61,365 nt of DNA from a virus (Duplodnaviria > Caudoviricetes), in the IMG/VR virus record IMGVR_UViG_3300032218_000733, positions 1-61,365 of that record; one strand, 5' to 3'. Positions 1 through 53,923 of the stretch are shown piece by piece. The stretch's first letter is position 1. Each line of letters opens with the position of its first letter. The notes beneath the pieces are model-generated. The model worked only from the letters and a program-made list of their open reading frames with translations. It was not told the origin of the DNA and searched no databases. The position numbers and the translations under genes were made by a program.

Positions 1-203
1 CCTGCCATTGTAGATACGGTGTTGGGAATAGTTACGCCAGCGGCATTTGCTACCCACATACAGAAACTTCCGCACCATGGGAGAAAGTTAGCCTTTGTAA
101 AAGCGCCGTATTTAGTTTCGTTATCTTTTGGTCCTTCTACATAACCAATTTCAGCTAATGCAACTTCTACCATACGAGCTGCTGTGCCTTTTGCTGCTGC
201 CAT
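1..203 (-). CDS. Endolysin, CHAP-domain amidase/peptidase (5' part; runs off the window)
   Basis: Not in the ORF track; translated by hand: MAAAKGTAARMVEVALAEIGYVEGPKDNETKYGAFTKANFLPWCGSFCMWV. The 'EIGYVEG..N.TKYG....PWC' pattern is typical of CHAP lysins. ATG overlaps the upstream stop (TAATG). Confidence 0.8.
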   Translation of the reverse strand, partial: MAAAKGTAARMVEVALAEIGYVEGPKDNETKYGAFTKANFLPWCGSFCMWVANAAGVTIPNTVSTMA

Positions 204-388
204 TATTTATCTCCTTTTAAAATTGATTTCTTAATTTTCTTGCTATCTGCTTCTGATGCATATAATGCTCTTAGATGAGCAGTAGCCGCTGACTTACTTG
301 GATGGCATCCAACTAAGGATCCATCAGATTCTTTTACTACAGCATAACCTTTGCATCCTGAAGCGCCATGCTTAATTTGCCAAGGCAT
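203..388 (-). CDS. Small hypothetical protein (GCH motif)
   Basis: 61 aa, coupled to both neighbours by TAATG overlaps. Confidence 0.7.
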   Translation of the reverse strand: MPWQIKHGASGCKGYAVVKESDGSLVGCHPSKSAATAHLRALYASEADSKKIKKSILKGDK

Positions 389-843
389 TATGCAACAACC
401 ATTGATTTAAGAGATGCTGTAATCTTCCATCTAAACTTTTCGTGTGCAGTAATTCTATCTGCAAAGAAGTTTGCAACTCCTTGTTCACCCGTAGATGTTG
501 CAGTATTGAAAGCAACCTTGTAATCTGTAATTAATTGTTCATTTGATTTCAATAGGGATTGAAGCATTTGAATTGGGTTATTTGCATTTAGGTCTAGATC
601 GTAAGTAACATTTGATACCGCCGCAATCTTTCCTACCTGAAATTCTGCAAATTGTGCGAATGATCTCTGCCACTCTGCAAGAGTGTCTACAGCGTCAAAT
701 GCATCTGTGTAGATATCTGAAAACATTTCATGGAATTGATCAAATAGAATGCCTTCGACATTCCAGTGATATCCATGTGCTTTTGTGTAATAAATAAAGG
801 TGCTGGCCTGTAAGGTTCTCAGCTGTGCGATTAATTCTTCCAT
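388..843 (-). CDS. dps: Dps / ferritin-like DNA-protecting protein
   Basis: Ferroxidase motifs HGYHWNVEG..F.QFHEMF and D.LAE, C-terminal HEK..W. Confidence 0.9.
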   Translation of the reverse strand: MEELIAQLRTLQASTFIYYTKAHGYHWNVEGILFDQFHEMFSDIYTDAFDAVDTLAEWQRSFAQFAEFQVGKIAAVSNVTYDLDLNANNPIQMLQSLLKSNEQLITDYKVAFNTATSTGEQGVANFFADRITAHEKFRWKITASLKSMVVA

Positions 844-849
844 ACACCC

Positions 850-858
850 ATTATACCA
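850..858 (-). promoter_or_regulatory. Extended -10 promoter (TGGTATAAT), leaderless dps transcript
   Basis: TGnTATAAT 6 nt upstream of the ATG at 843; no SD. Confidence 0.7.
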
Positions 859-872
859 TTTCTATTTTGTAG

Positions 873-947
873 TCTCTCCGACACGATTCGAACGTGCATA
901 GATCCATTATGCGCCTAGTGGGTAGAAACCACTGCCAATACGGAGAG
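873..947 (-). tRNA. Atypical tRNA-Arg (anticodon UCU) lacking a canonical D-arm
   Basis: Acceptor CTCTCCG/CGGAGAG plus A73; anticodon arm AGTGG-TTTCTAC-CCACT; T arm GCACG-TTCGAAT-CGTGT. Only 7 nt between acceptor and anticodon stems, 19-nt variable region, no encoded CCA. Confidence 0.75.
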
Positions 948-973
948 GTAGCGTTAAAAATTTGAGATATCTG

Positions 974-1303
974 TCAATTATCTGAAATATCTTCTTCCTC
1001 TAAATCTACATCAATTAATCCATATTCAACTGCTATTTCATATCCTTCTTCTGTTAAACTAATTAAAGCATCTAGATTTTCATCATATTCAACACTCAAT
1101 AAACCCTTTTCATATAAATCTAATAACTTATTATCTACATACTGTAAATGAGATTCCCATAATTCTGGTGCTAGATGCTCAGCTTCTTCTGTAATTTCAT
1201 AAATAATTTCTCCGTCTTTATTTACACCAATTAGTTCAACAGCGCCTATTTCAAGATAGTATTCTAACTTCATGTTTTCATCCATATTATCAAAATCATC
1301 CAT
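974..1303 (-). CDS. Highly acidic hypothetical protein
   Basis: 109 aa, D/E-rich, SD AAGGAG upstream. Confidence 0.75.
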   Translation of the reverse strand: MDDFDNMDENMKLEYYLEIGAVELIGVNKDGEIIYEITEEAEHLAPELWESHLQYVDNKLLDLYEKGLLSVEYDENLDALISLTEEGYEIAVEYGLIDVDLEEEDISDN

Positions 1304-1367
1304 TAGATCTCCTTTGTTTTATCAGCAGGAAGGCTACTGACCAATTAATCTATCGCCCTTTACTAAC

Positions 1368-1619
1368 CTATTGTAAACTACCATCTTCATTTTTGTCAAT
1401 GGTCTCTTCTACTATTTGCTGTACATATTCTGAAAAATGCTTTCTAATATTACCCTGTGGCCTAACACCTAATGACTTCCATATTCTTTTATATTCAATT
1501 ACATTAGCAAATGTAGTCGGACAAAGCATGACACTATTATACTCTTTCAAAACAGTTGGAAGCGGGACATGCTTTGTGCAGCATTTGCAGTCTTTTGCTC
1601 TTAATTGGTATTCGCTCAT
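1368..1619 (-). CDS. Hypothetical Cys-motif (putative Zn-binding) protein
   Basis: CKCC...CP motif; ATGA overlap with the terminase stop. Confidence 0.7.
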   Translation of the reverse strand: MSEYQLRAKDCKCCTKHVPLPTVLKEYNSVMLCPTTFANVIEYKRIWKSLGVRPQGNIRKHFSEYVQQIVEETIDKNEDGSLQ

Positions 1620-3403
1620 ATTGTCATCATTCTCTCTAATGCATCTTCTATGCCCTTGGGCATTTGGGGTGCTCTAATAACTCCCATTTGAAATGTATCA
1701 TCTAGTTTATTGTCTACCGTCATTGAATCATATGTATGAATTTCAACTTCTCTATTTACTTCTGGTCGTGTTTTACTAATTGAATTAAATACTGCACCAC
1801 ATACAGCATCAGCTAAGTCTTTAGATCCCTTTCTAGGGTGATCTACTTTATCTCTCATAATTTTAAGCTGAAGTAATTCATCAATTAGTAACGGTATATG
1901 TGGACCGTTTAATCTTTCTTCCAAAACAATCATAGCCATATCATCATAATGTTTTTTAGCCACCGACAAAATTTCTGTATTAATTCCATAAGCCTGAAGT
2001 TGTTGCATCATATCATGTGAATTCCATCTGTCAAATGTACACATACGAATTTTAAATCCACGAGTTCTTAATGCTAAAATATGATCTTTAACTTCACTAA
2101 AGTCTACAGACTTATCTGGTGTTGGAGTCCAGTATCTAACTGAATCAACATTTACAATTGGTGCTGGCTGTGAATAATCATTAGTTATTTTAACATTTAC
2201 CCAACGATCAACGTGTGCCATTGATACTGCACAATGGTCATGTTTTTGCGCTAAGTCAACGTGAATAAAATACTCTTTACCTTCTTCTGGCTGGAACCAC
2301 TCTTCTAATCTACCAAATTGATCTATGGCCAATGCTGGTTTATTAAAAGCCTTTTCAATTTTCTCTCTTGACTTAAAAAATGCATCTACCGCTTCTGATG
2401 GCATGCATGCAAATCTTCCTAGAGCATCAACCATATTTTTATGAAATGCTACAGTAAAATCTTCAATCTTTTTAGTTGGATTAACTTCCCATGTCGGTCT
2501 TTTTAATGCAAATGTCTTTGGGTAGACGTATGACTTGATATGGTCTTCTTCCCACTGAACTTCAAATTCATTTCCCTCTATGCCATCTGGAAGTTCATCA
2601 TTAAGTTTTAACTTTTTAACTCTTGCAACCACTTCTTTCTCTGCAATCACAGCCTCGTATCTTTGCTGAATATAGTCATTTTTAAAACGTGGAAAAGAAA
2701 GCAATATTACTTTACCAAAATCTGGAAAACGAGAATCAACTGATGCCCTATACATATCATAAATTGCATCACCTGTTTTTGCCTGATCATGTCCAGTAGT
2801 ACTTTCAATAGCAAAACCTGAAATTTCATCAAGGATAACAACAATAACGTTATAGCCTTCCCAAGCTTCACGTTCTGAGTGACCTGAGTGAACTGTTATA
2901 GCTTTATTAAATTTAATTTCAGATGCTTTATCTGTATATTTACCAATAAACCATGGAGAGCGATCAATACGTGTTTTAAATCCTTTAAAGAAAACGTTGC
3001 TTGCCTGTTGTGCGTTAATAGCAATATTGATAATATCAATTGAATCTCCAGGAGGTTTACCATAATAAGTTGCTGGATCTTTTAAGCACAAAAGTAAATG
3101 TACTATGTAGGCTACAGAAATGGTAGAACAATAATCTTTTCCACTTCCTTTTCCTAGTTGAGCAACAACTTCATTACAAGTTTGCTTGTACATTCTTTTG
3201 CCTTCTTGCTCGCCAAAAAGCTTTGTTAAGGTAGATTCTTTATATATTTGAGAACTTTTTTCAATAAGTGTATATTGGTGATCGGATAATGGGGGCAAGC
3301 CAAGATAGTCTGGGCTTGTTACAAATGTCCGAAGATCAACTGGACGTTCTTCAAATTCTTCGCCGTCAAGCATATCGATGAGATCATTAAAATCAAACGA
3401 CAT
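1616..3403 (-). CDS. terL: Terminase large subunit
   Basis: Walker A-like GKGSGKD, Walker B VILDE, C-terminal RNase H-like nuclease (HVDLA, DH...KDLADA). Start placed at MSFDF after a GAGG SD. Confidence 0.9.
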   Translation of the reverse strand: MSFDFNDLIDMLDGEEFEERPVDLRTFVTSPDYLGLPPLSDHQYTLIEKSSQIYKESTLTKLFGEQEGKRMYKQTCNEVVAQLGKGSGKDYCSTISVAYIVHLLLCLKDPATYYGKPPGDSIDIINIAINAQQASNVFFKGFKTRIDRSPWFIGKYTDKASEIKFNKAITVHSGHSEREAWEGYNVIVVILDEISGFAIESTTGHDQAKTGDAIYDMYRASVDSRFPDFGKVILLSFPRFKNDYIQQRYEAVIAEKEVVARVKKLKLNDELPDGIEGNEFEVQWEEDHIKSYVYPKTFALKRPTWEVNPTKKIEDFTVAFHKNMVDALGRFACMPSEAVDAFFKSREKIEKAFNKPALAIDQFGRLEEWFQPEEGKEYFIHVDLAQKHDHCAVSMAHVDRWVNVKITNDYSQPAPIVNVDSVRYWTPTPDKSVDFSEVKDHILALRTRGFKIRMCTFDRWNSHDMMQQLQAYGINTEILSVAKKHYDDMAMIVLEERLNGPHIPLLIDELLQLKIMRDKVDHPRKGSKDLADAVCGAVFNSISKTRPEVNREVEIHTYDSMTVDNKLDDTFQMGVIRAPQMPKGIEDALERMMTI

Positions 3404-3935
3404 CTGCTTCCTCAACTACAACTGATTCAACTACTCCAGTAATTTGCGATAGTCTTCGTGCAACATCCATTTTGCATTTAGGGCATGAGGCTGTAACTTC
3501 TTTTAAAATTCCAACAAGTATCTCCTGCTTACGCTCTGTATCGGCAATTTGTGTAGCAAGTTCTACATTGTCTAGTAGTCCAACCTGCTGTAGCATTCCA
3601 ATTCTTTTTGTTTCAATATCTGCAATTAATTTTAAAGCTGTATTTTTATTATTAAGTTGACCCTGTTGATCGGAATCTCTAACAACTTTCCAAGCTTCTT
3701 GTATTAGCATAGAGTAATGTTGGTCTGCACCAGAGATTGCTTCTTTAGCTCTGTCTCTAGCCGCTGTATCATTTTTTACAACGCCCTTCCATTCATCTAT
3801 GAGTTCTAATACTTCTGCCCTCTTTAAACCAGTTAGAGAGGCTATCTGAGTTGGATTACTACCTTTGAGCAACTCAGACACCACTTGGTTCATGCGATCA
3901 AAATGATCTGCTAATTCAATTTCTATTGTAATCAT
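3393..3935 (-). CDS. HTH protein, probable terminase small subunit
   Basis: N-terminal HTH (NPTQIASLTGLKRAEV), helical body, immediately upstream of terL. Confidence 0.6.
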   Translation of the reverse strand: MITIEIELADHFDRMNQVVSELLKGSNPTQIASLTGLKRAEVLELIDEWKGVVKNDTAARDRAKEAISGADQHYSMLIQEAWKVVRDSDQQGQLNNKNTALKLIADIETKRIGMLQQVGLLDNVELATQIADTERKQEILVGILKEVTASCPKCKMDVARRLSQITGVVESVVVEEADVV

Positions 3936-4254
3936 CCTCTATTCTTTGAATATCATCTTCGCCAAAATAGGTTCCTGTTTGAACTTCAATAAATTCAACT
4001 GGATCTGATTGAGATTCTATTCTATGAAGGTCCCCCGCCTTTATATCTATGGAGTGACCTGGTGACATTACACGGCTGGTACCATTTATAGTTACATATG
4101 GATGTCCAGAAACTATAAACCAGTGCTCATGTCTCTTTTCATGTCTTTGGTAGGATAGTCTTTTTCCAGCCTCAACATATATATATTTTGTTTTATGATT
4201 ACTAGATTCATCAAGAATTGTATAATATCCCCATGGTCTATTTTCTGTACTCAT
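3916..4254 (-). CDS. Cupin, mannose-6-phosphate isomerase type II C-terminal-like
   Basis: RPWG, LSYQRH..R.EHW, HRI, IEVQTG.YFGEDDI.R motifs. Confidence 0.88.
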   Translation of the reverse strand: MSTENRPWGYYTILDESSNHKTKYIYVEAGKRLSYQRHEKRHEHWFIVSGHPYVTINGTSRVMSPGHSIDIKAGDLHRIESQSDPVEFIEVQTGTYFGEDDIQRIEDDYNRN

Positions 4255-43846: not shown

Positions 43847-45685
43847 TTATGTGTTTTGTATTACAAGCCAGTCATTATTGTAAGGAGTAAAGGAGTTTTC
43901 TGTCAGGCTCAATGACGCATTTTCCAAGTCTGTTACTGTAGAAATTGATCCCCTTGTATAAAGGTTATAATGACTTGTAGCCATTGTGCTATCAAAAGCT
44001 GACGGATAGAAGGTTATATTTTGATAAAGCCCCTTTGTATCCCCTGTAGATAAACTATTAAATGAAACTAATCCTATTAATGTAGAATCTAAAACCATAA
44101 TAATGTGATTTAATTGATTTAACTTAAATACATTATCAACTGATGGCTCTGAAGATTTTTCAATTCCATTTACCCAAATTGCATCTATTCCAGCATAATC
44201 CATATTCCCGCCCGAATCCCATGATACCTCTATGCCATCAGCGACCACTAGAAGGCCGTCAGAATCCCCTGAGAGGCGTGTATAGAACAGTTCAATGGTC
44301 TGGTAGCCTTCTAGTAAGTCAATGTCGAATCCAGAGGCTTCAGGGCATAGGATGCCGTTTCTAGCGTCTCTGCTTAAAATATTATATTTATTATTTCCCA
44401 TTGTTGCTAATGAATTTTCCTGCATAACTATTTTTTCACCAGAATTTACAGCATACAAAATCGGGTTATTATAAAAACTTAATCCTAGGTTATATAATTT
44501 AGGTATATAAATTGATGAGTCTGTTGAAGATAATGTTATTCTTAAATAAAGATTCCTTGATGAATCAAATCCATCTAAATTATATTGAGGGATTGATTCT
44601 CTATTACTACAAGGTATCCAAGTTATTCCGTCAATACTTGTTTCAACTGTAACTCCATTTGTTCCATACCATTCAATTTTTGAAGTATTCATATCTAGTC
44701 CCGCTGGAATTGTAATAAAATCTTCAATTACAACATCTTCTGTTGCCCCGCTTAAAAGAGAAATTGAATCCTCTAGGCCATTGTAATAAATGTTAGTTTG
44801 ATCAAACCAACTCCATGGCTTATTTGCTGGATATGAATAGTAATATGTTTTACTAATATTATTGTCATAAATTTCAAATAGGCTACCAGAATCTGGATTA
44901 GCAATTTGAATTGGCGGAAGTCCTAATGCTTCTTGATAATGTGATCTTATTTGGCTTTCAGATAATGCATATCTATATGCCGCAAAACTATTGCATAAAA
45001 TCCAGTCTGAAACATTTGTTGTTGGCCCACATTCTAACGATAAAGATGTATTAATAAATGTAAAATCAGATAAAGATAGATTGCTTTGTAAAGTGCCATC
45101 TACATATAAATATGCAGCATCTTTTTTATATATTGCAACAATGTGCATAGACCTATCTAAATATGGCGCAGTCCAAGAAATTTTGTGGGAGTTTAATTTA
45201 AATACTATGTTTCCGTTTTTATAGAATAAGCCAACATTATTTGTTGGATCACCAAAAATTGCAAATTCGGTAGCCGTAGTAATGTGAGGATATATCCAGG
45301 CTTCTAATGTAAAATCATTATCTGATGAATTTAATGTGCCAAATTGGCTGGTGGTAGGAACTGCAGTATAATCATTTGGAAAAGCATATAATATTGAATT
45401 GCTACTAGTTATCTTGGTTGATCTTGAATTACCTAATACTATAGAAAGAATATCTACTTCTGGATCCCCCGCATAAAATGCATGATTATTTGATCCAGAA
45501 TGATCATATGCAATATCTCCATGTAAGTTTGCATAAGCAGATAAAAGAGGATCATCTAAAATGTCTTGATATGTTGGATAGTGTTCTACAATATATGTAT
45601 AGTCAGAAAGATCAACGGTAGTCAAATCATCTAGTGGGAAATAGCCTACTGGATAGTCTGACAGAATTGTTGATCTATATGACAT
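43847..45685 (-). CDS. LamG/concanavalin A-like lectin domain virion protein
   Basis: D.P.GYFPLDD, FTLEAWI, HIVAIY...LYVDG, Y.YALS..QI..HY. Confidence 0.8.
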   Translation of the reverse strand: MSYRSTILSDYPVGYFPLDDLTTVDLSDYTYIVEHYPTYQDILDDPLLSAYANLHGDIAYDHSGSNNHAFYAGDPEVDILSIVLGNSRSTKITSSNSILYAFPNDYTAVPTTSQFGTLNSSDNDFTLEAWIYPHITTATEFAIFGDPTNNVGLFYKNGNIVFKLNSHKISWTAPYLDRSMHIVAIYKKDAAYLYVDGTLQSNLSLSDFTFINTSLSLECGPTTNVSDWILCNSFAAYRYALSESQIRSHYQEALGLPPIQIANPDSGSLFEIYDNNISKTYYYSYPANKPWSWFDQTNIYYNGLEDSISLLSGATEDVVIEDFITIPAGLDMNTSKIEWYGTNGVTVETSIDGITWIPCSNRESIPQYNLDGFDSSRNLYLRITLSSTDSSIYIPKLYNLGLSFYNNPILYAVNSGEKIVMQENSLATMGNNKYNILSRDARNGILCPEASGFDIDLLEGYQTIELFYTRLSGDSDGLLVVADGIEVSWDSGGNMDYAGIDAIWVNGIEKSSEPSVDNVFKLNQLNHIIMVLDSTLIGLVSFNSLSTGDTKGLYQNITFYPSAFDSTMATSHYNLYTRGSISTVTDLENASLSLTENSFTPYNNDWLVIQNT

Positions 45686-46896
45686 TATCCACCTACCGCA
45701 GATTTAAGATATCTAACAATTACTATACCAGAGCCACCTGCTCCCGCAAGTGTGGAGTAGTATCCCGTTGCTCCGCCCCCGCCTCCAGTATTAATTGTAC
45801 CACCAGAGCCGCTTGAACTATAACGTCCTATTCCTCCGCCGCCAGAACCTCCTGAAGTTGAAAGTGAAATAGATCCACTAGTTGAATATCCTCCAGATCC
45901 TCCACCGCCACCTGCATAATAATAAGTTGAAGAAACATTTTGTCCTGTTGATGTTGCTGCGCCCCATGAAGAGTATGTTGCTGTTCCTGCTCCACCATTT
46001 CCAGCATTTGGACCATCGCTACCAGCTGCTCCTGCTCCTCCGCCACCTCCAGAACCAATTCCTGCTCCAGCTGGATTAGAAGCATTTCTATAACCTCTTC
46101 CTCCTGCGTTACCTTGTCCAGAAACTGCGTCTCCTCCAACGCTATAACCACTTGTGCTTGATGCACCTCCGCCTCCACCAGATCCACCATTTCTTCCTTT
46201 TTCTGGAGTACCAATTTGTGCAGTCCATCCTCCTCCACCTCCAGTTGATGATGTACTTGCAAATGATGAATTTGTGCCATTTGGTGCTAAACTATTTGAA
46301 TCACTAATTGCAGCTCCTCCTCCACCAACTATAATTGATGTGTCACCAAGCAGTCCTGTAGGAGAATAAAGAACAACTCCACCTGCTCCTCCTCCACCAC
46401 CGAATCCTGTTCCTCCTGCCCCACCTCCTGCAATAATTAAAACGCTAGCATCCATTGCAACATTTGAAACTGCAAGGGTTCCATTAGCAGTAAATGTTCT
46501 ATAGTAATATGTAGCATCTGAAGATAGTGTTCCACCAGTTACAGTTGCTGCGGCAAGCGGTGTGAGTGAACTAGATGCAGAACTTGAATCGCTTGTGCCA
46601 AAAGCATTTATTGATGTCATTGTAAATGTATATGCCTGATTTGCTACAAATGTTCCAGAGACTGTTAAGGATCCATCTAAATCTGTATTTGTGTAAGTAA
46701 GCGCTATTGATGGTGATGAAGTAATTGCAATTGTTGTTATTGGAGAGCCATTAGCATTTCCGAGTGTATAGTTTAATGTTATTGAAGTAGAATTTATTGT
46801 TAATACGGAAGTAATTGATGGTGCTGATGGCTTAATTGCTCCCACCTTTACTAAACCTCTTGCGGATAAACTAGCTAGCGATTGGAATAATGGCAT
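45685..46896 (-). CDS. FN3 + glycine-rich-domain fibre/adhesin
   Basis: FN3 (GSPIT...YTFTMTSINAFG) then IAGGGAGG...GGSGIVIVRY. Confidence 0.75.
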   Translation of the reverse strand: MPLFQSLASLSARGLVKVGAIKPSAPSITSVLTINSTSITLNYTLGNANGSPITTIAITSSPSIALTYTNTDLDGSLTVSGTFVANQAYTFTMTSINAFGTSDSSSASSSLTPLAAATVTGGTLSSDATYYYRTFTANGTLAVSNVAMDASVLIIAGGGAGGTGFGGGGGAGGVVLYSPTGLLGDTSIIVGGGGAAISDSNSLAPNGTNSSFASTSSTGGGGGWTAQIGTPEKGRNGGSGGGGGASSTSGYSVGGDAVSGQGNAGGRGYRNASNPAGAGIGSGGGGGAGAAGSDGPNAGNGGAGTATYSSWGAATSTGQNVSSTYYYAGGGGGSGGYSTSGSISLSTSGGSGGGGIGRYSSSGSGGTINTGGGGGATGYYSTLAGAGGSGIVIVRYLKSAVGG

Positions 46897-46910
46897 TTAT
46901 TTTCCGCCCC

Positions 46911-48287
46911 CTATGCGTATTTAGTTTGTGATCCGAATACAGTATATGTTGCAGATGCTGTTTTAAGTATTGTGTAAATATAAGAATCTATTGATGAAGC
47001 ATTGCCAACTGTTGGTGCCGTTCCGTTTAACCACTTAATGCTCCCTTGGGTAGATCCATCAATTTGAAATGTTGACGGATAAGATGCTGTTGAAGCTCCA
47101 GTTGTATTTAAAAATGCAATAGTTATTGATTGTCCAGTAGCTAATAATGAATTAAGGCTTGTTCCTGAGCTTCCTCTAACATTTAAAGTAAATGCACTTG
47201 TTGAGCCTGTTGTATAATACCAAACGCTTGAGGTAGTAACATCCATATTTATTGTAGATGATGTTGCTGCTGCAACTACATTTGCTGTTTCAATTAATCC
47301 AATTACTGCTGAGTTTGTTTGTATTGTACCTTGGGTTCCAGTTGTGCCTTGAGTTCCAGTAGTACCCTGTGTTCCAGTTGAGCCTTGTGAGCCAGTCGTA
47401 CCTTGTGCACCAGTTGTACCTTGTGTTCCAGTTGTGCCAGTTGTACCCTGTGTTCCAGTCGCACCTTGTGCACCAGTTGTACCAGTAGTTCCTTGTGCAC
47501 CAGTAGTTCCTTGTGCTCCAGTTGTTCCGTTTGTACCCTGTGTGCCTGTTGTACCCTGTGTTCCAGTCGCACCTTGTGTACCAGTTGTACCAGTAGTTCC
47601 TTGTGCACCAGTAGTTCCGTTTGTACCCTGTGTGCCTGTTGTACCCTGTGTTCCAGTCGCACCTTGTGTACCAGTTGTACCAGTAGTTCCTTGTGCACCA
47701 GTAGTTCCTTGTGAACCAGTTGTACCTTGTGAACCTTGAATTGGACCAACATTTGTCCATTCTGCTCCAGTCCAAACATATAAGTTCCCAGAAATTGTAT
47801 AAGCATCTCCAAGTGTTCCTGTTGGATGTGCTGCCTGTAATGCACCTAAGTTTGCATATGTTCCAAGTATATTAACGCCAGTTCCAGCAATTCCCTGTAC
47901 TCCAGTAGAACCTTGTGTTCCTGTTGTACCCTGGGTGCCCGTTGTGCCTTGAGCACCAGTTGTTCCTTGCGCTCCTATTGTTCCTTGAGCACCAGTTGTT
48001 CCTTGACTACCAGTTGTACCTTGAGTTCCTTGTAAACCAGTTGTGCCTTGAGAACCAGTTGTTCCTTGCGCTCCAGTTGTACCTTGCGCTCCAGTTGTAC
48101 CTTGAGTGCCAGTTGTTCCTTGACGACCTTGTATACCTTGAGTTCCTTGTGTACCTGTTGCGCCTTGTGCTCCAGGATTTGCTGTTAAATATGTATCTAC
48201 ATTTTGTGCAAGTAATTGAATGTCCGCAGGAATATCTGGCGGATCTGAATAAGCGGGGAAACTAAAACCCTTTGATGTTGAACCCAT
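46911..48287 (-). CDS. Collagen-like (G-X-Y) fibre protein
   Basis: Two long GTQ/GTT/GAQ tracts around a short spacer; C-terminal beta domain ([10 protein letters not shown]...D.Y.Y). Confidence 0.85.
47524..47703. repeat. Exact 90-bp tandem duplication inside the collagen tract
   Basis: 47524-47613 equals 47614-47703; a partial third copy lies near 47440-47510. Confidence 0.85.
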
Positions 48288-48333
48288 TTTAAAATTATAC
48301 CACCTTAAATGTTATGACAATCACCTATAAAAC

Positions 48334-49629
48334 TTACTGAATATAAACCTTTTCTGAGACCCATAGCTGGTATCCCATAAACGTAATAAGTTCAATTCCA
48401 AATTCGCTTCTTGCGACTGTATTTAAATACTTTTGGTGATAGGGATATTTACACAAGAAAAGTTTATTGTGTCCTATGGCAAATGGGACCAGAGTAGGGA
48501 ATGTTCGTAGATATTCTACTAGACCATCCATTACTCCAAGCCAGTGGGGGTGGGTAATATCATCTAAAATTACTATACCTGTGTCGCTAACATATTTTTC
48601 TGCCAGCTTTAAATCATTTAATGTATGTGTCTTTGTGTGCCCGCCATCTATAGAAAAATATCTAATAGATCCTGGCTTTATTAAAGAAGAAATTTCTGAC
48701 TGTGTTTTGCCTGAAGTTGAATCTCCTTTAATTATATTAACTTTTTTGCCTTTAAAATTATCGTAGTTATTTAAATTTTCTTTAAATATATCAGTAGAAC
48801 CTTGCCCACCATTAGAATCACTATTAAGATGTTGATCTTCAAAGATATCTATGGCATATGAATTTTCTTCGGTATCAATCATATTTCTAAGAAGAAGGAA
48901 GAAGCGACCCATATAAACTCCAATTTCTGCTACCCCTCCTTCTTTATTCCAATCAACATTAAGTGTTTTCATAAATTCTGGAAGTGTTCTTACAACCCAT
49001 CCAGGAACTTTAGTAAAACCATCATTGAGATATTTATCGTAATCTGACTCAATGATATCTTTACCAATCCCCATAAAATCTAAGTTTGTTTTAACTGATG
49101 AAGAATACATTTTAGGCATTGCTATCTTAGAAAGTTTAGTAAATAATTCTTGGCTTTCATCTTGTCTTCCTACCCACCAAGCACATACAGCTTTTTGAAA
49201 TGTTAAACAAAAATCTCCTGGGTAATCAACACCTACTGGAAGTGGTGCATGGTTTCCTGATAATTTATAAAGACCAACTTCTGCATAGGTATATGCTTGT
49301 TGCCAATTCTTATTTCGTTCACTATAACGAGAAAGTAAGAACCATGCTTCAGGTCTTCCTGGTTGATATGCCGCAGCTTTTAGAAAAAGATTTTCTACTG
49401 TTGCTTGTCTATTTTTTTGATTTTCAAAACAATTTGCTGACTTCAATAATGATGCATATACATATTCTGGATGTGAATAGTAACCATATTCTGCCGCCCT
49501 TAAATAAAATGAAATAGCAGCAGCTGTTTGTCCTACAAGTTCATACTCTGTAGCAATGCTAAAACAAAGCTTTGGGTCAAAAGGGTCTTTGCTTAGTTTT
49601 TCAACTAATTCATTTATAACCTCAAACAT
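48334..49629 (-). CDS. TPR-repeat protein fused to a class I SAM methyltransferase (Methyltransf_24-like)
   Basis: N-terminal TPR-like helices (YLRAAE, P.RPEA.F.L); C-terminal EIGVYMG, AIDIF, SIDGGH, ILDD. Confidence 0.8.
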   Translation of the reverse strand: MFEVINELVEKLSKDPFDPKLCFSIATEYELVGQTAAAISFYLRAAEYGYYSHPEYVYASLLKSANCFENQKNRQATVENLFLKAAAYQPGRPEAWFLLSRYSERNKNWQQAYTYAEVGLYKLSGNHAPLPVGVDYPGDFCLTFQKAVCAWWVGRQDESQELFTKLSKIAMPKMYSSSVKTNLDFMGIGKDIIESDYDKYLNDGFTKVPGWVVRTLPEFMKTLNVDWNKEGGVAEIGVYMGRFFLLLRNMIDTEENSYAIDIFEDQHLNSDSNGGQGSTDIFKENLNNYDNFKGKKVNIIKGDSTSGKTQSEISSLIKPGSIRYFSIDGGHTKTHTLNDLKLAEKYVSDTGIVILDDITHPHWLGVMDGLVEYLRTFPTLVPFAIGHNKLFLCKYPYHQKYLNTVARSEFGIELITFMGYQLWVSEKVYIQ

Positions 49630-50620
49630 TTATAGCCTCTGCAATCATACTATCTATTACATCTCCTGGAACCCTTAGAACAAAAGCTGCATTGTCTACA
49701 TAGCCAAATGTGACGAGAAGGTCATTTTCTAATTCTGCGGCGCCAGCACAGAATTCTATTTGCCCATCTAGAAAAGACCAGCATTCTGGAGACATTCCTT
49801 GAAGAATAAACTTATCATCCCATACACATAATCTATGTCTATATGTAGCATTTTTCTGCTTCATATAATTTTTATATAAAACAACTTCATGTGTAATAGC
49901 GATGTATTTATCTTTCCATTTAATAACTTGGGATCCACCACGTTGATCAGAATTAATAGCATTGCCTTCTTCGTGAGAAACTTGTTCACATTTAGATTCT
50001 TTAGGATATGCTTTAACTACCTCTGTAGGAGATGTCCATTTAATATATTGAAATTCTCTATCTAAAATAGGCATCCAATTTTTTTCACAATAAGATGTTT
50101 CATCTATTGGTGCTGGAATTCTAATACGAGATATTTCTTCTGCCGTCCAATTTTCTTTATCAATCTTTAATTCTGATAATTCCATACGACCAACTCCGTT
50201 GGTTGTTGTATCTCTGCGAACTCCTGTAGCATAATATTTGCCATCCCATTTAACAAGTCTTGCATCTTCTAATCCAACAAATGTCCATATTGGGGCAACA
50301 TCTAATTTAGTAGTATCAATCAATGTCCAGTTAATTATATTTAAATCTTTATCAAGTCGGCAAAGGTAGTTGGAAGTTATTAATCTTTGATCTTCTTCTG
50401 GATGTAAATATGCTAATGGTCCCCATACGCTAGGAAATCTTTGATCATTTTCAGAATGATATAAAGTATAGTTTATGTGTCTTAATATACATAGGATATC
50501 TCCATCATCATCTATAAAGATAGAGGGATTCATTAATCCTGTCCCGCCCGTTTCTTCGGAAGGAATAATAAGTGGAACTAAATTGCCCCCATTAGATATT
50601 GATTTTTGTACTAGATTCAT
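49622..50620 (-). CDS. Beta-propeller glycoside hydrolase/phosphorylase-like protein (GH43/GH130-like fold)
   Basis: NPSI, GLEDARL, EKNWMP, RGGSQ, IEFCAG, FG..D. Confidence 0.65.
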   Translation of the reverse strand: MNLVQKSISNGGNLVPLIIPSEETGGTGLMNPSIFIDDDGDILCILRHINYTLYHSENDQRFPSVWGPLAYLHPEEDQRLITSNYLCRLDKDLNIINWTLIDTTKLDVAPIWTFVGLEDARLVKWDGKYYATGVRRDTTTNGVGRMELSELKIDKENWTAEEISRIRIPAPIDETSYCEKNWMPILDREFQYIKWTSPTEVVKAYPKESKCEQVSHEEGNAINSDQRGGSQVIKWKDKYIAITHEVVLYKNYMKQKNATYRHRLCVWDDKFILQGMSPECWSFLDGQIEFCAGAAELENDLLVTFGYVDNAAFVLRVPGDVIDSMIAEAINV

Positions 50621-50659
50621 AGTATCTATTCTACTATTTAAAGCAATTATTGTAAATGC

Positions 50660-51004
50660 TTATTCTACTTTATTCCAAGATGTTGTTTCTTCATTCCACA
50701 AATATAGATCTCCGTCTGATGGATAAGGTATTGGTGAATTCCAGCCACATGTTTCTTCATTTAAAAGCCATGATTCAAACATTTTTGGTGGGATAAAAGC
50801 ATCACGAGACTCATCATACGTATAACCTATTCCAGCATAATTTTTACGAATATTATGATTATATGATGTGCGTAAACATCTTTGTCCACGGAAATTTCCA
50901 TACCAGGTTTCAGTATCTAAGCCCTCAATAAGTTCAGTCTCGTCAATACCAGTAATAACTTCTGTTACTATATTATTATTATCTAAAAATGCATAATGTG
51001 CCAT
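50660..51004 (-). CDS. Small partner of Gly-rich fibre (MAHYA family)
   Basis: MAHYAFLD.NNIV, RKNYAGIGYTYD..RDAFIPP; paralogous to 53342..53701. Confidence 0.7.
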   Translation of the reverse strand: MAHYAFLDNNNIVTEVITGIDETELIEGLDTETWYGNFRGQRCLRTSYNHNIRKNYAGIGYTYDESRDAFIPPKMFESWLLNEETCGWNSPIPYPSDGDLYLWNEETTSWNKVE

Positions 51005-53307
51005 TACCAAGTCACCGTTCCTGTTCCACCAGTAAATCTGTATACTCTATATCCAGATCTTGAAGGTTCTGTATAACTTAATCCACCGCTAATTGTAGGT
51101 GCTGCAAACGAGTTTGAGTATGCAATTATTACTACTCCAGATCCTCCACCACCATTTGGTGCTGCTGCACCAACGTTTATCCCGCCGCCACCACCGCCGC
51201 CAGTATTAGCAGAACCAGAAACAGCTGCTCTTAGAGTATTTAAACTATTAGCATTTCCATTTGCGCCAGCTCCTCCGCCTCCAGAGCCTCCAGCTGCTGT
51301 TGACGCTCCTTGATAAACAGATCCACCACCACCACCTGCATATGTTACAGAAGATCCTGTAATTGATGAGTCGCCACCTGCTCCACCATTACCAACTGTT
51401 GTGTTTGTTCCATCAGTTCCAACTGCGCCTTTTCCTCCGCCGCCACCAGAACCTATAATGCCACCTGCGTATGATCCAGTTGCATCTCCACCCTTATTTC
51501 CTTGCCCAGATATTCCAGCTGCTCCAGTAGCTCTTCCAGGGGTTCCGTCTGAGTTACTACCGCCACCACCAGAACCACCAGAGTTTGCATTTCCAACAGC
51601 ATTACCTGCTCCACCACCTCCACCAGTTGATGTTATTGATGAAAATGTTGAATTGCTTCCGCTTGCTCCAACTGCTGCTGTTGAACTATTTTGTGCGCCT
51701 CCGCCACCGACCGTGACAGTGTAAGATCCACTATTTACTGATGTAGTTCCAGTTAACATTCCTCCTGCGCCTCCACCACCACCCCAACCATTACCGTTTG
51801 CCGCAAATCCAGCAGCACCTCCAGCAACAACAAGATACTCTACTGATGTTGGCCCTAAATATGGTTTTGGAGTCATAGAGTTTGATTCGGAAGATGTTGT
51901 AGATGTGCCATTAGCATTTGTAGCAGACATTGTAAAAGTGTATGCTTGGTTTGTTGCAAAAGTACCAGTCACTGTAAATGGTGATGATGTTCCAGAATAA
52001 GTTAAAGCAACTGAAGGACTACTTGTAATTGTATAAGATGTAATTGTAGATCCGCCAGTTGCTCCTGCTGTAAATGGAATAGAAACTGTAGTGTCATTTG
52101 TTCTTGTAACTGTACCAATAGTTGGTGCTTGTGGAACGGTTGTTGCAGTTACTCCAGATGATGCAGGGCTTGACGTAGATGTTCCATTAGCATTTGTTGC
52201 TGTAGCTGTATATGTATACTGAGTAGAAGATTGAAGTCCAGTAACTATAAGTGGAGATGATGAGCCTGATGCTGTGTATGAACCAGGAGAAGATGTAATT
52301 GTATATCCTGTAATAGCAGATCCTCCTGTAGAAGGTGCAGTAAATGCTACAGATGCAGATCCATTGTTATATGCACGACTAGAAGGTGTATTTGTTGCAG
52401 TAGGCGCAGACATTGTTGCTGGTGCTGTTGAAGGTGTTAAAGAGGCAGATGCTGAACTTGCTGTTGAATTTCCATTAGCATTAGTTGCAACTGCGGTAAA
52501 AGTATAAGCTGTTCCAGAAGTTAGTCCAGCAACGGTTACAGGGCTTGTGCCTGAGCCAGTTAATGATCCTGGGCTAGATGTTACTGTAAATCCTGATACT
52601 GCCTTACCGCCTGTTGCGTTTGCTGTTACTGGAACAGAAGCAGAAGTAGTAGATCCAAATGCTACTCCAGTAATGTTTGTTGGAGTTCCAATTGTGGGCG
52701 CTTGTGGAACAGAAGTTGTTGTAACTGAAGATGAAGAGCTAGAGGCTAATGCATTTCCATATCCATTAGTTGCTGTGACTGTAAAAGTATATGCTGTTCC
52801 AAGTGCTAGTCCAGTTACTCTAACTGGCGATGAAGAGCCTGATGCGCTAATTGCTCCAGGAGATGAAAGTGCTGTAAATGAAGATGCTAATCCGCCCCCA
52901 GCTGCTGGCGTAAATGCAACATCTACTGCTCCTGAGTTATATGTAATATTAGTACCAACATCTGTGGCTGTTCCAATTGTTGCAGATAATGGAATTACAC
53001 CAAGTTGTGACCATCCTGCTGATGTGTAAACTTCAATATACCCTGTTTGTGTATTTGAATAAATGTCGCCTAATGCAGGTGATCCTGGTCTACTTGCTGT
53101 ATCACCTTTTTGAAATCCATTTGGTAATGTAACCCAAGATGTTGATGTTCCATCAGTTTGTAAAACTTTATTAGCGGAAGATGTTTGTAAAGGTAGTAAT
53201 GCATTTAGAGCATTATTAGCAGAAGTTTGTCCTGTTCCGCCCTCTGTGAGGGCAATAGGAGTAGGACTAGTTATGCTAGTCTTTACTTTAAAATTCTTAT
53301 CTGCCAA
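51004..53307 (-). CDS. Multi-FN3 + glycine-rich-domain fibre/adhesin
   Basis: Four FN3-like repeats (YTFT..ATN..G), then VEYLVVAGG...GGSGVVIIAY. TTG start. Confidence 0.8.
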   Translation of the reverse strand: MADKNFKVKTSITSPTPIALTEGGTGQTSANNALNALLPLQTSSANKVLQTDGTSTSWVTLPNGFQKGDTASRPGSPALGDIYSNTQTGYIEVYTSAGWSQLGVIPLSATIGTATDVGTNITYNSGAVDVAFTPAAGGGLASSFTALSSPGAISASGSSSPVRVTGLALGTAYTFTVTATNGYGNALASSSSSSVTTTSVPQAPTIGTPTNITGVAFGSTTSASVPVTANATGGKAVSGFTVTSSPGSLTGSGTSPVTVAGLTSGTAYTFTAVATNANGNSTASSASASLTPSTAPATMSAPTATNTPSSRAYNNGSASVAFTAPSTGGSAITGYTITSSPGSYTASGSSSPLIVTGLQSSTQYTYTATATNANGTSTSSPASSGVTATTVPQAPTIGTVTRTNDTTVSIPFTAGATGGSTITSYTITSSPSVALTYSGTSSPFTVTGTFATNQAYTFTMSATNANGTSTTSSESNSMTPKPYLGPTSVEYLVVAGGAAGFAANGNGWGGGGGAGGMLTGTTSVNSGSYTVTVGGGGAQNSSTAAVGASGSNSTFSSITSTGGGGGAGNAVGNANSGGSGGGGSNSDGTPGRATGAAGISGQGNKGGDATGSYAGGIIGSGGGGGKGAVGTDGTNTTVGNGGAGGDSSITGSSVTYAGGGGGSVYQGASTAAGGSGGGGAGANGNANSLNTLRAAVSGSANTGGGGGGGINVGAAAPNGGGGSGVVIIAYSNSFAAPTISGGLSYTEPSRSGYRVYRFTGGTGTVTW

Positions 53308-53341
53308 TTCGGTTCACATATCCCCTACTTAAATTATTTTA

Positions 53342-53701: not shown

Positions 53702-53731
53702 TTAATTTCTCCTTTGTTATTATATAATAGG

Positions 53732-53923
53732 TTATTCAATTATATCATTTGTTGGTGCTGAAGTACGCTCTACATCTTCCGCCAATATTGTTTCATTTAC
53801 AAGCACATAATTATTATTTCCACATGCATTACATGTTGGAAAAAACATAGGTTCATCTTTTCCACGTTGTTCTACATATGTATGTCCACAACATGCTGCT
53901 TTATATTCATATTTAACTGTCAT
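53732..53923 (-). CDS. Small Zn-ribbon-like protein
   Basis: CCGH...CNACG; SD GGAG upstream. Confidence 0.65.
   Translation of the reverse strand: MTVKYEYKAACCGHTYVEQRGKDEPMFFPTCNACGNNNYVLVNETILAEDVERTSAPTNDIIE

Follow-up and report, generated by a model that had tools for sequence, protein, structure and literature searches.

A phage tRNA-Arg(UCU) gene with a probable segment-swapped core

The window, by which we mean the whole 61,365-nt stretch of DNA analysed here, very likely contains a working elongator tRNA-Arg(UCU) gene whose core has its segments swapped and whose product would decode AGA, as judged from its sequence and those of its relatives. An ordinary tRNA runs in the order U8-N9, 5' strand of the D-stem, D-loop, 3' strand of the D-stem, N26, anticodon arm, and short variable loop. 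Here, the 5' strand of the D-stem and the D-loop would have shifted to the position of the variable loop. The two strands of the D-stem would thereby flank the anticodon arm and form a short helix, which we call P2, that lengthens the anticodon stem, and the D-loop (UAAUGGA...) would run as a single strand from P2 into the T stem.

The element sits on a tailed-phage contig and its layout is given in Table 1. The initial annotation quoted letters in which all the elements are present, but its orientation had to be corrected: the quoted sequence is the reverse complement of window positions 873-947, and hence the gene lies on the minus strand, at 947..873, with its 5' end at 947. The fully paired acceptor, anticodon, and T arms and the length of 75 nt were each found as it had described them. 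So were the missing D-arm, with just a 7-nt linker and no D hairpin between the acceptor and anticodon stems, and the 19-nt segment 3' of the anticodon arm that includes UAAUGGA. The RNA starts with the pair C1-G72. The 5' strand of P2 would be the equivalent of a D-stem strand, running on into the anticodon stem, and the two connecting nucleotides A32-G33 may be the equivalents of tRNA positions 44 and 45.

Table 1. Elements of the rewired tRNA-Arg(UCU) gene in the window (RNA positions are numbered from the 5' end at 947)
Element	Window positions	Strand	Remarks
Acceptor stem, 5' strand, RNA positions 1-7, CUCUCCG	941..947	-	pairs with 880-874
7-nt linker from acceptor stem to anticodon arm	934..940	-	from the sequence
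U8, A9, U10	938..940	-	UA invariant in 160/160 family sequences
P2 helix, 5' strand, UGGC, positions 11-14	934..937	-	covariation of columns 11-45 and 12-44
Anticodon arm, 5-bp stem and 7-nt loop UUUCUAC	917..933	-	U33 and A37 present
Anticodon UCU	926-924	-	within the loop UUUCUAC
19-nt segment between anticodon and T arms, includes UAAUGGA	916-898	-	from the sequence
Connector A32-G33, anticodon stem to P2 3' strand	915..916	-	AG starts the connector in many class I members
P2 helix, 3' strand, GCGCA, positions 34-38, G36 bulged	910..914	-	covariation
Relocated D-loop strand, UAAUGGAUCUAU, positions 39-50 (putative)	898..909	-	UAA, GG spacing, 15/48 covariation
T arm, stem GCACG/CGUGU (closing pair G.U), loop UUCGAAU	881..897	-	5-bp stem
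Acceptor stem, 3' strand, CGGAGAG	874..880	-	pairs with 947-941, 7 bp
Discriminator A	873	-	CCA not encoded; 3' flank CUA

A family of rewired genes in phages

At least 159 distinct sequences share the rewired architecture. This set consists of the matches listed in three scans of viral contigs, two phage records, and the window, and the family counts given here are samples among the matches listed (about 120 per scan), from sequences that are related to one another. The homologues were collected with sequence patterns fixing parts of the motif; hence, that GG, the T loop, and, for most scans, UAA and AU are conserved is not independent evidence. The linker is 7 or 8 nt long in all 159 relatives and the D hairpin is absent throughout. 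The discriminator is G in 62 sequences, A in 61, U in 36, and C in one (n = 160), and 88 of the 160 genes encode CCA. Cultured phages of Streptomyces, Pseudomonas, Agrobacterium, Stenotrophomonas, and Limnohabitans are among the carriers. In bacterial and archaeal genomes, family members made up four of the first 120 pattern matches listed, which suggests that this is not a common cellular type of tRNA. A megablast search of window positions 1-4000 against the phage collection returned no match.

The wide distribution bears on the alternative that the gene is a decayed pseudogene or that it arose as an assembly artefact in this contig alone, which we regard as highly improbable. Such an origin would fit the absence of rewired genes from all 80 phages whose TerL is 73-81% identical, among which 45 carry a canonical tRNA-Arg(UCU) downstream of terL, on the same side as the window gene; it would also fit the negative ARAGORN and Rfam searches of the window (see below). 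It is contradicted by the recurrence of the same layout, with covarying stems, in at least 159 distinct sequences, by the members in cultured phages of five host genera, and by the occurrence of the window's own subtype of linker and P2 in 20 sequences, including Streptomyces phage LilMartin. Furthermore, a contig of 171 nt from an independent metagenome run (X3, of a study other than the probable source) covers window positions 800-969 with no differences, at a depth of only 2, and this identity argues against mis-assembly. Among the contigs of four DNA runs over window positions 500-1500, that short X3 contig alone spans the element exactly. Run X2 contains a relative that is about 89% identical. 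The run search found no RNA sequencing runs containing this sequence. The initial annotation had suggested that homologues be gathered into a covariance model and that the tRNA was rewired rather than decayed; the 159 relatives with the same architecture, covarying stems, and compensatory changes bear out this expectation.

The rewired genes are mostly overlooked. At 37 of the 39 phage places listed (some records recur) the gene is unannotated, and in the other two, both Mildred21 records, it is labeled tRNA-Phe. No description of such tRNAs was found in the open full-text literature, including the available parts of a pair of reviews on non-canonical tRNAs (PMC7609411 and PMC5389517).

Covariation of P2 and of the classical stems

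In an alignment of 126 sequences, 92.3% of the cells pair, compared with 58.0% in shuffles and 38-48% when the partners are slid. The columns of the acceptor stem are paired in 98.4% of cases and all seven pairs vary on both sides. The anticodon stem (columns 16-19 with 27-30) is 98.6% paired and covaries, and the T stem is 99.5% paired in the family alignment, with compensatory changes in three of its five pairs. In P2, pair 11-45 is formed in 126 of 126 sequences (CG 72, GC 23, UA 23, AU 8) and pair 12-44 in 125 of 126, with compensatory change; the third pair, 13-43, is present in 77 of 126 and the fourth, 10-46, in 23 of 126. In a mutual-information scan of all 2775 column pairs, 11-45 and 12-44 rank 6th and 8th, and the 17 top corrected scores belong to these two P2 pairs and to the 15 classical-stem pairs in which both sides vary. 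Applied to the same alignment, RNAalifold predicted the three classical stems only and not P2; the case for P2 was then built on explicit counts of pairs, compared with controls, and on the mutual-information scan.

Two further observations concern subtypes. The 20 sequences of the window's own subtype all pair G13 with C or U, and 19 of them pair C14 with G; the P2 pairs of the window copy are U11-A38, G12-C37, G13-C35, and C14-G34, with G36 bulged. In a second subclass, of 33 sequences, the linker pairs with the three bases that follow GGA, and compensatory changes are seen there. The helix between the linker and the 3' segment that was originally claimed to extend the anticodon stem is supported by the alignment, but the pairing proposed for it, UAUUGGC with GC(A)UAAUG, does not hold: the pairs supported by covariation (11-38, 12-37, 13-35, and 14-34) leave UAA unpaired for tertiary contacts.

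By folding energy alone, the window copy is no better than chance: its minimum free energy of -22.0 kcal/mol (z = -1.13) is matched by 30 of 200 shuffles. Evidence that the element is real comes from the comparison of sequences. Folded singly, the copy has a minimum-energy structure with a local hairpin, GCAU(A)/(U)AUGC, and a T stem of 3 bp, and enforcing P2 gives -21.4 kcal/mol compared with the minimum of -22.0. Across the alignment, 57.7% of the cells of this hairpin pair, four of its five pairs lack changes on both sides, and the remaining one does not form in 68 of 126 sequences. We rejected it for the lack of convincing compensatory change and for its conflict with the covarying pairs of the T stem.

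The covariation of P2 implies that selection acts on the swapped arrangement itself. This speaks against an otherwise conceivable route in which the RNA is a precursor, cut and rejoined into an ordinary cloverleaf in the manner of permuted or split tRNA genes. Permuted tRNA genes are known in a red alga, and some carrier phages, such as LilMartin, encode an RNA ligase and a polynucleotide kinase. However, two cuts and two ligations inside the molecule would be needed to restore the canonical order, the acceptor strands are already paired and in normal order, the 75 nt already equal the length of a mature tRNA, and no ligase or kinase was found among the 50 proteins of the window phage that were scanned. 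We give such processing a very small probability.

The relocated D-loop strand and its tertiary pairs

Directly after the acceptor stem, U8-A9 is present in 160 of 160 sequences, although no search pattern fixed it, and these invariant bases may correspond to U8 and to A21 (or A9) in the core of an ordinary tRNA. In the scan in which UAA was not fixed, all 95 listed sequences have it. The spacer before GG is 1-3 nt long, as in real D-loops. We infer that the strand supplies the equivalents of U13, A14, A15, U16/17, G18, G19, and A20, followed by A and U48. The equivalents of positions 15 and 48, which form the Levitt pair, covary as A/U or G/C, with mixed combinations essentially absent: A15 stands with U48 in all 159 family sequences and G15 with C48 in at least 26 family members (among 120 listed loci), whereas complete scans gave no G15 with U48 among 40 loci and three weak candidates for A15 with C48 among 107.

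The proposal that the D-loop function has moved to the 3' side of the anticodon arm therefore gains support from four sides: the P2 covariation, the 15/48 covariation, the spacer of 1-3 nt, and a base after GG that tracks the anticodon (see below). A related statement, that AAUGGAU is a common D-loop in bacterial tRNA-Arg, was not borne out: none of the 12 canonical phage tRNA-Arg(UCU) genes examined, which read AG(N)GGA..., contains this heptamer. They do share GG followed by A.

These tertiary pairs also help to weigh a simpler explanation: a working tRNA that merely lacks the D-arm and has a long, floppy variable region, comparable to mitochondrial tRNA-Ser, in which GG and UAA would have no structural role. 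Several results lean that way. RNAalifold did not call P2, which has just two pairs that always form, and the Rfam tRNA model aligns the relatives as a deletion of the D-arm plus an insertion of 16 nt in the variable region. Furthermore, a tRNA with no D-arm can be used by E. coli, according to the available part of PMC11551756. Still, we consider this explanation quite unlikely, since it would leave unexplained why covariation is as strong in the P2 pairs as it is in the classical stems, why the equivalents of 15 and 48 covary, why UAA(N1-3)GG and the invariant U8-A9 are kept in 159-160 sequences, why the base after GG follows the amino-acid identity of the anticodon, and why the 33 sequences of the second subclass pair the bases after GGA with the linker through compensatory changes.

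Arginine identity and supply of AGA codons

In a scan in which the anticodon was left free, 78 of the 79 anticodons among the matches listed were those of arginine (UCU, UCG, ACG, and CCU); U33 and A37 were present in 79 of 79 and C35 in 78 of 79. The base after GG tracks the anticodon, and A at this place goes with arginine anticodons. In the complete scan, members with another base there had an arginine anticodon in just 4 of 19 cases, 2 of them ambiguous in register, and the other 15 had the anticodons UAU, CAU, or GAU. The determinants of bacterial arginine identity are A20, C35, U/G36, and A/G73, as given in the available part of PMC9976931.

The codon usage of the phage suggests a use for such a tRNA. 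AGA is the commonest arginine codon of the window phage, whose G+C content is 37%, and accounts for 306 of its 553 arginine codons. Together with the canonical tRNA-Arg(UCU) that related phages carry downstream of terL, this usage supports the early suggestion that the gene could supply AGA decoding. In all 12 of the phage genomes or regions compared, the rewired genes and the canonical tRNA-Arg genes have different anticodons: 14 rewired and 13 canonical arginine genes have no anticodon in common (naive chance 0.016). For this comparison, canonical tRNAs were searched over 40 kb in each of G002, G004, and G005 and over about 3 kb in PAK_P2, SOVA965, and Amme-3. Rewired genes are found inside phage tRNA clusters, and HNH homing endonucleases adjoin them in SOVA965, Mildred21, and PAK_P2. 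In the window, Pfam and PHROGs scans of the flanking open reading frames (974-1303 and 1368-1619) matched no family.

Could the RNA nevertheless be a tRNA mimic that does not decode, such as a decoy or inhibitor of a defence nuclease, of ArgRS, or of another tRNA-binding factor, or a regulatory RNA? Some tRNA-shaped RNAs of phages have no decoding role. The unusual fold, the failure of standard tools to find the gene, and the lack of an encoded CCA in the window copy would also suit a mimic. However, the anticodon loop is canonical (U33, A37, and C35, in the proportions given above for the matches listed), four different arginine anticodons occur, and the rewired genes fill anticodons missing from the canonical sets in 12 of 12 cases. 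In addition, related phages have a canonical tRNA-Arg(UCU) on that side of terL where the window gene lies, and the acceptor/T branch and the discriminator suit charging and binding by EF-Tu. We therefore hold a non-decoding role to be unlikely. A tRNA-like domain of tmRNA and a Y-RNA-like mimic were dropped on their features, since an arginine anticodon arm is present and there is no Rfam match.

Gene finders and covariance models

With default settings, ARAGORN found no tRNA at the window copy. Relaxed thresholds and the mitochondrial mode gave forced misfolds only, for example with the true anticodon arm taken as a D-arm or with a shifted acceptor stem, and the program finds none of the rewired genes examined. 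The Rfam tRNA model RF00005 has no match in the window at the gathering score (29 bits) and none to the window copy at E values up to 10, in searches of 401 nt and 101 nt. Around the window copy, the Rfam matches at E values up to 10 are chance ones of snoRNA type. The same model scores four of five tested relatives at 30.7-38.7 bits, marginally above the 29-bit threshold, and the canonical tRNA neighbors of these relatives at 34-68 bits. By contrast, the family covariance model (R1) gives the window copy 72.6 bits, as the sole match in the window, a score that is partly so by construction because the window sequence is in the training alignment. Outside the training set, Mildred21, Atu_ph04, PAK_P2, and two copies in G004 score 63-81 bits.

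Compared with a canonical tRNA, the window copy has the 7-bp acceptor stem with its discriminator, the anticodon arm, and the T arm, and it lacks the 5' D hairpin, a short or self-paired variable region, and a score of 29 bits. Compared with the family, it has UA after the acceptor stem, the 3- or 4-nt P2 strand whose partners immediately precede UAR, and UAR(N1-3)GG with the matched base (A/U or G/C) before the T stem.

How the rewired tRNA may work and why it may be kept

If the segment-swapped tRNA is functional, the relocated strand would still supply bases of the tRNA core. Its A14 equivalent would pair with the invariant U8, its A15 equivalent and the U that precedes the T stem would form the Levitt pair, its G18-G19 would contact the T loop, and its A20 would be the main base recognized by ArgRS. 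An L-shape could thus still form with the swapped core. We infer that the RNA is transcribed, processed, folded in three dimensions, charged, and used in decoding: RNase P would cut the 5' end, a host enzyme would add CCA, host ArgRS would charge the molecule through A20, C35, U36, and A73, EF-Tu would carry it on a normal acceptor/T branch of 12 bp, and the tRNA would then read AGA codons.

A further possibility, which we advance tentatively and think doubtful, is that the swapped-core fold is a second natural tRNA architecture that phages keep as a counter-defence. All the contacts for ArgRS, for IleRS (in the members with UAU, GAU, or CAU), for EF-Tu, and for the ribosome may be kept, while the surface of D-arm and variable loop that is seen by tRNA-cleaving nucleases or by quality control may be removed or re-routed. 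Phage decoders of AGA (and of AUA) may in this way survive the destruction of host tRNAs. The rewired genes may also spread between unrelated phages with the adjoining HNH homing endonucleases.

To our knowledge, a cloverleaf that has its D-arm 5' of the anticodon arm is taken to be universal except in organelles. If the rewired tRNAs are charged and decode, the L-shape would have been solved in nature with a different strand topology, a D-loop could act as a strand rather than as a hairpin loop, and the identity of ArgRS at A20 would tolerate rewiring. Since tRNA finders miss or mislabel these genes, phage tRNA repertoires, analyses of codon supply, and host predictions are incomplete for AGA and other arginine codons. 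The presence of members in cultured, tractable phages (Pseudomonas putida phages, Pakpunavirus, Streptomyces phages, and Agrobacterium phage Atu_ph04) makes these ideas directly testable. The swapped fold could also be a natural scaffold for the engineering of orthogonal tRNAs.

Comparison with known systems

The closest comparison is with canonical tRNA-Arg (RF00005, and the relatives' genes L778-L853). The rewired genes share with it the 7-bp acceptor stem, an anticodon arm with U33 and A37, the 5-bp T stem with a loop of the UUCGAAU type, GG followed by A, a discriminator A or G (or U), and the length of 75 nt. They differ in having one D-stem strand on either side of the anticodon arm and the D-loop between this arm and the T arm. 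Class II tRNAs (Leu, Ser, Tyr, and Sec) also have extra sequence between these two arms, but they keep the D-arm and the extra sequence folds on itself as a hairpin, whereas the rewired segment pairs with the 5' linker.

The permuted tRNA genes of Cyanidioschyzon merolae have the 3' half before the 5' half and pass through a circular intermediate to give a normal mature tRNA. Like them, the rewired family has an order of segments that differs from the cloverleaf. Unlike them, its ends are normal, the swap is internal, and the covariation indicates that the swapped RNA is the folded product.

Mitochondrial tRNAs lacking the D-arm have lost the conserved contacts between D-loop and T-loop. The rewired genes resemble them in having no 5' D hairpin and a short connector between acceptor and anticodon, but the phage family is of full length, keeps a canonical T arm, GG, U8, and the 15/48 pair, has its D-loop moved and not lost, and belongs to phages rather than to organelles. 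The mitochondrial forms are described as miniaturised and flexible in the part of a review that is available, where the A. suum tRNA described also has a shortened T-arm.

Finally, an engineered tRNA with no D-arm, “mini HisT,” is used by an evolved E. coli (PMC11551756, from the part of that paper that is available). It is, like the rewired tRNAs, of bacterial type and devoid of a D hairpin, and that part of the paper has it accepted by its cognate synthetase, by EF-Tu, and by the ribosome. As presented there, however, mini HisT is artificial and the arm is simply missing, whereas the phage family is natural and widespread and keeps its D-loop elsewhere in the molecule.

A probable transfer RNA missed by gene finders

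Positions 873-947 on the minus strand, with the 5' end at 947, reproduce exactly the RNA proposed in the initial annotation, a tRNA-Arg(UCU). As that annotation had advised, we ran ARAGORN, which at default settings calls neither this element nor any other tRNA across the entire 61,365-base window and with relaxed or mitochondrial settings returns forced misfolds only. Rfam has no match to the element at gathering scores, and searches of the surrounding 401 nt and 101 nt with E up to 10 do not bring up its tRNA model either. With a minimum free energy of -22.0 kcal/mol (z = -1.13), the element is matched in stability by 30 of 200 shuffles. Since the single-sequence fold is no better than chance, the reality of the element rests on comparison. 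Window positions 800-969 are identical, at depth 2, in an independent lake-water run. A contig of about 89% identity in another metagenome run (X2) has about 450 additional bases adjoining the 5' side of the tRNA gene (window ~957-959) and also differs across 1098-1333.

Coordinates of the window element and of associated features
Feature	Record	Position	Strand	Details
Acceptor stem	window	within 873-947	minus	7 bp
Linker UAUUGGC	window	within 873-947	minus	7 nt
Anticodon arm	window		minus	5-bp stem, loop UUUCUAC, anticodon UCU, U33, A37
Segment between anticodon and T arms	window		minus	19 nt, includes UAAUGGA
T arm	window		minus	5-bp stem, loop UUCGAAU
3' end	window		minus	discriminator A; CCA not encoded
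Promoter-like site	window	1004-977	minus	30 nt upstream of tRNA
PF21722 genes	window	45685-61351		seven paralogous proteins, glycine-rich domain
Collagen-repeat genes	window	46911-48287, 54800-55312		among PF21722 genes
Rewired tRNA	Mildred21	L773:595-670 (NC_042008, 91367-91442)		anticodon UCG (Arg)
Rewired tRNA	LilMartin	L370:3464-3541 (MT684590, 73463-73540)		anticodon GAU (Ile)
HNH gene	SOVA965	L002:955-1491
HNH gene	Mildred21	L773:159-593
HNH gene	PAK_P2	L772:1587-1952
"tRNA-Pyl(cta)"	large phage contigs	L499:16522-16598, L502:2837-2909, G006		ARAGORN call

Extent of the rewired family

Compared by sensitive blastn with 50,697 phage records, the element matched unannotated spots in Streptomyces phage LilMartin and its relatives and in Stenotrophomonas phage SOVA965, in each case inside a tRNA cluster. 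The LilMartin and SOVA965 copies, both missed by ARAGORN, have the layout and the UCU anticodon of the window copy; their acceptor and anticodon stems differ in sequence, yet remain mutually complementary. We then scanned IMG/VR viral contigs with three patterns followed by a structural parser, the counts being those of the matches listed. With the anticodon loop and UAAUGGA fixed, a T loop lay downstream in 19 of the 122 matches listed. An anticodon-free pattern (UAAUGGA, AUG and T loop fixed) gave at least 82 parsed sequences, three loci (L196, L216 and L237) being judged false by eye and left out. With UAA free and the UCU loop, GGA, AUG and T loop fixed, the parser passed 95 of 103 distinct sequences among the matches listed. 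The three scans combined yield at least 159 distinct sequences, window included, that share this swapped architecture, in which the D-loop strand lies between the anticodon and T arms.

Cultured members include Agrobacterium phage Atu_ph04, Limnohabitans phage DC31, about a dozen Streptomyces phages and the Pseudomonas phages PAK_P2, JG003, phiPsa397 and five vB_PpuM phages. No annotation underlies the match at 37 of the 39 cultured-phage places listed, some records being counted more than once. In two records of Streptomyces phage Mildred21 the match is labelled tRNA-Phe(gaa), but its loop, CUUCGAA, reads UCG; this copy has the swapped architecture, scores 80.9 bits on our covariance model of the family and is not called by ARAGORN. 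The anticodon-free pattern found at least 79 distinct members in viral contigs (77 of them in the 119 loci listed), and four true members among the 120 matches listed for bacterial and archaeal genomes. The contigs of these four (L406, L438, L472 and L484) are filed as bacterial genomes or MAGs, one of them being 1.04 Mb long and from a Hoeflea MAG.

The rewired gene has an HNH (homing) endonuclease gene as a neighbor, about 20 nt away at most, in three cultured phages whose hosts are unrelated, and this may account for its movement between phages; no such neighbor adjoins the rewired copy in the window or in LilMartin. Three large phage contigs with a rewired tRNA-Arg also carry ARAGORN calls of "tRNA-Pyl(cta)", which resemble amber-suppressor tRNAs, a hint that stop codons are recoded in these phages.

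Secondary structure and covariation

We aligned with MAFFT the 126 sequences having a 7-nt linker, window included (89 columns), and tested a structure comprising the three classical stems and P2, a helix of linker positions 10-13 with the U of UAA and the three bases before it. This structure pairs 92.3% of cells, against 58.0% in 500 shuffles (none as high) and 38-48% when the partners are slid by 1-3 columns. Within P2, pair 11-45 is formed in 126/126 sequences (CG 72, GC 23, UA 23, AU 8) and pair 12-44 in 125/126 (GC 67, CG 42, UA 9, AU 7), while 13-43 is paired in 77 and 10-46 in 23 of the 126. In P2, a short helix, two pairs are thus obligatory and one or two more facultative. Counting against it, RNAalifold on the same alignment returns the three classical stems only, and we therefore ran an unbiased mutual-information scan over all column pairs. 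Of 2775 pairs, the 17 with the highest corrected mutual information are 15 classical stem pairs variable on both sides plus 11-45 (6th) and 12-44 (8th). The two obligatory P2 pairs thus covary as strongly as the classical stems. The initial annotation had suggested that UAUUGGC pairs with GC(A)UAAUG and had proposed a covariation check; it is P2 that the covariation supports.

A local hairpin taken from the single-sequence fold fared worse, at just 57.7% paired cells: of its five pairs, four lack two-sided change and the fifth (43-66) is unpaired in 68/126, and the hairpin clashes with two T-stem positions whose own pairs hold in 126 and 123 of the 126 sequences. In the window subtype (20 sequences, LilMartin included), P2 directly abuts the anticodon stem and consists of U-A, G-C, a bulged G, G-C/U (20/20) and C-G (19/20); on the window sequence the model containing it has -21.4 kcal/mol, 0.6 above the minimum. 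A second subclass (alignment A2; 33 viral-contig sequences) is marked by an 8-nt linker, whose positions 2-4 pair with the three bases that follow GGA in an added 3-bp helix, 93.9% paired and with two-sided changes in 13 and 10 of the 33. This helix makes the D-loop strand a large bulge, followed by GAAAAU and the T stem.

The relocated strand resembles a D-loop

Four observations favor the earlier proposal that the D-loop has moved 3' of the anticodon arm (positions are numbered by their canonical equivalents). First, U-A directly follows the acceptor stem in 160/160 sequences, at bases not fixed by any pattern; U8 pairs universally with A14. Second, UAA is followed by 1-3 variable bases and GG in 95/95 of the matches listed in the scan leaving UAA free, a layout mirroring the A14, R15, variable alpha region and G18-G19 of the canonical D-loop. 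Third, the Levitt pair 15/48 covaries. Position 15 is A and the base before the T stem U in all 159 sequences; G15 with C48 occurs in 27 parser-positive sequences among the 120 loci listed; complete scans gave G15 with U48 in 0/40 loci and A15 with C48 as three weak, doubtful candidates in 107. One locus of the G15/C48 set, L617, is a canonical long-arm tRNA and was left out.

Fourth, the base that comes after GG goes with the anticodon, though not absolutely. Where it is A, the matches listed in the anticodon-free scan carry UCU (38), UCG (16), ACG (14), CCU (10) and GAU (1), that is, arginine anticodons in 78/79, C35 in 78/79 and U or G36 in 79/79. A complete scan for other bases gave 20 parser-positive sequences (19 of 101 loci), or 19 sequences once the doubtful L933 was left out. 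Fifteen of these have UAU (9), CAU (5) or GAU (1), each having U after GG and A as discriminator; only four have arginine anticodons, two of them register-ambiguous. As an exception to the rule, the nine UAU members among the loci listed in the G15/C48 scan carry A. The pooled table (95/10 vs 4/15) gives a Fisher p of about 1e-9, which is not a true probability because the sequences are related and drawn from the matches listed. A published account names A20, C35, U/G36 and A/G73 as bacterial arginine determinants and U20 among those of isoleucine (PMC9976931).

This arrangement fits a transposition of the D-stem 5' strand and the D-loop segment into the place of the variable loop. The linker strand would stand in for 22-25, running into the anticodon stem via 26, and the strand before UAA would stand in for 10-13, running into A14.

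Anticodon repertoire

Among 12 genomes or regions, with canonical genes taken from ARAGORN or record annotation, the rewired (14 genes) and canonical (13 genes) arginine anticodons never overlap. The chance of this is 0.016 for the eight informative genomes, with five anticodons assumed equally likely. Two viral contigs, G006 and G010, have 39-40 canonical tRNAs, yet in both the rewired gene is the sole source of an AGA decoder.

Arginine anticodons of canonical and rewired tRNA genes (G numbers, viral contigs)
Genome	Extent	Canonical	Rewired
LilMartin	38 kb	CCU, UCG, ACG	UCU
G004	40 kb of 247 kb	UCG	CCU, ACG, UCU
G002	40 kb	UCG	ACG
G005	40 kb	none	UCU
vB_PpuM-Amme-3	3 kb	ACG	UCU
PAK_P2	3 kb	none	UCU
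SOVA965	3 kb	none	UCU
G006	whole contig	ACG	UCU
G007	whole contig	ACG, UCG	UCU
G008	whole contig	none	UCU
G009	whole contig	ACG	CCU
G010	whole contig	CCU, ACG, CCG	UCU

Isoleucine- or methionine-type anticodons also occur on the swapped architecture (the nine UAU among the loci listed in the G15/C48 scan, e.g., L558, L559 and L511; the 15 UAU, CAU and GAU with U after GG, e.g., L883, L866, L951 and L929; and one further GAU, L124), so the fold is not restricted to arginine, and further amino-acid classes may exist outside the reach of GG(A)-based patterns. LilMartin carries a second, unannotated gene of this kind, with loop strand UAG...GGU, C before the T stem and 50.6 bits on the family model, as well as a canonical tRNA-Ile(gat).

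The window phage and its relatives

We identified 80 viral contigs with TerL 73-81% identical to that of the window. The initial annotation had suggested seeking homologues between terL and dps in related phages; the rewired gene is present in 0/80 relatives (best family-model score 31 bits, from canonical tRNAs). Downstream of terL in the relatives (L778-L853), ARAGORN calls canonical tRNA-Met(CAU) in 63/80 and canonical tRNA-Arg(UCU) in 45/80, a conserved module of which the window phage has neither gene. Its rewired UCU gene, the only tRNA, lies 669 nt past terL, on the same side as the relatives' tRNAs. Because its stems are unlike those of their canonical tRNA-Arg(UCU), we read it as a probable replacement by an incoming gene rather than a rearrangement made locally.

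AGA is indeed frequent, being the main arginine codon (306/553 in 57 long ORFs, 37% G+C). The contig is that of a tailed phage, with terminase, portal, capsid, protease and tape measure genes, alongside Pol III alpha, primase, DnaB, RecA and SSB; a Dps-like gene lies immediately downstream of the tRNA. Since no tRNA-processing or charging enzymes are found among the window genes, this tRNA would depend on those of the host. All but one of the long ORFs (56/57) are on the minus strand, and the window also holds a group of PF21722 and collagen-repeat genes.

None of the RNA sequencing runs searched contains the window DNA. The promoter-like site upstream of the tRNA is of a kind no commoner than in shuffles, and a search for a terminator found none. 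According to an abstract, a tRNA that has no D-arm is accepted by E. coli HisS, its cognate synthetase, by EF-Tu and by the ribosome (PMC11551756), which supports the feasibility of function for the rewired tRNA. The swapped fold may have spread as a neutral alternative, or it may be an adaptation, e.g., against tRNA-cleaving defenses.

Comparison with known tRNAs

We rate the element as a tRNA with a new core topology. No description of the family turned up in the main text of the openly accessible articles searched or in passages from two reviews of non-canonical tRNAs, and an earlier description is possible outside that coverage. Its interest is high because members occur in easily handled phages. 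All known bacterial tRNAs are canonical cloverleaves, according to a 2024 abstract (PMC11551756). By Rfam score, four of five relatives tested are borderline tRNAs (30.7-38.7 bits vs a threshold of 29; the window copy fails), and some align to the model by deletion of the D-arm and a 16-nt insertion in the variable region. In class II tRNAs the extra segment is a hairpin, which it is not here. In contrast to the mitochondrial tRNAs without a D-arm, the rewired family retains the elbow elements and full length, and, in contrast to the permuted tRNA genes of algae, its swap is internal and selected as such.
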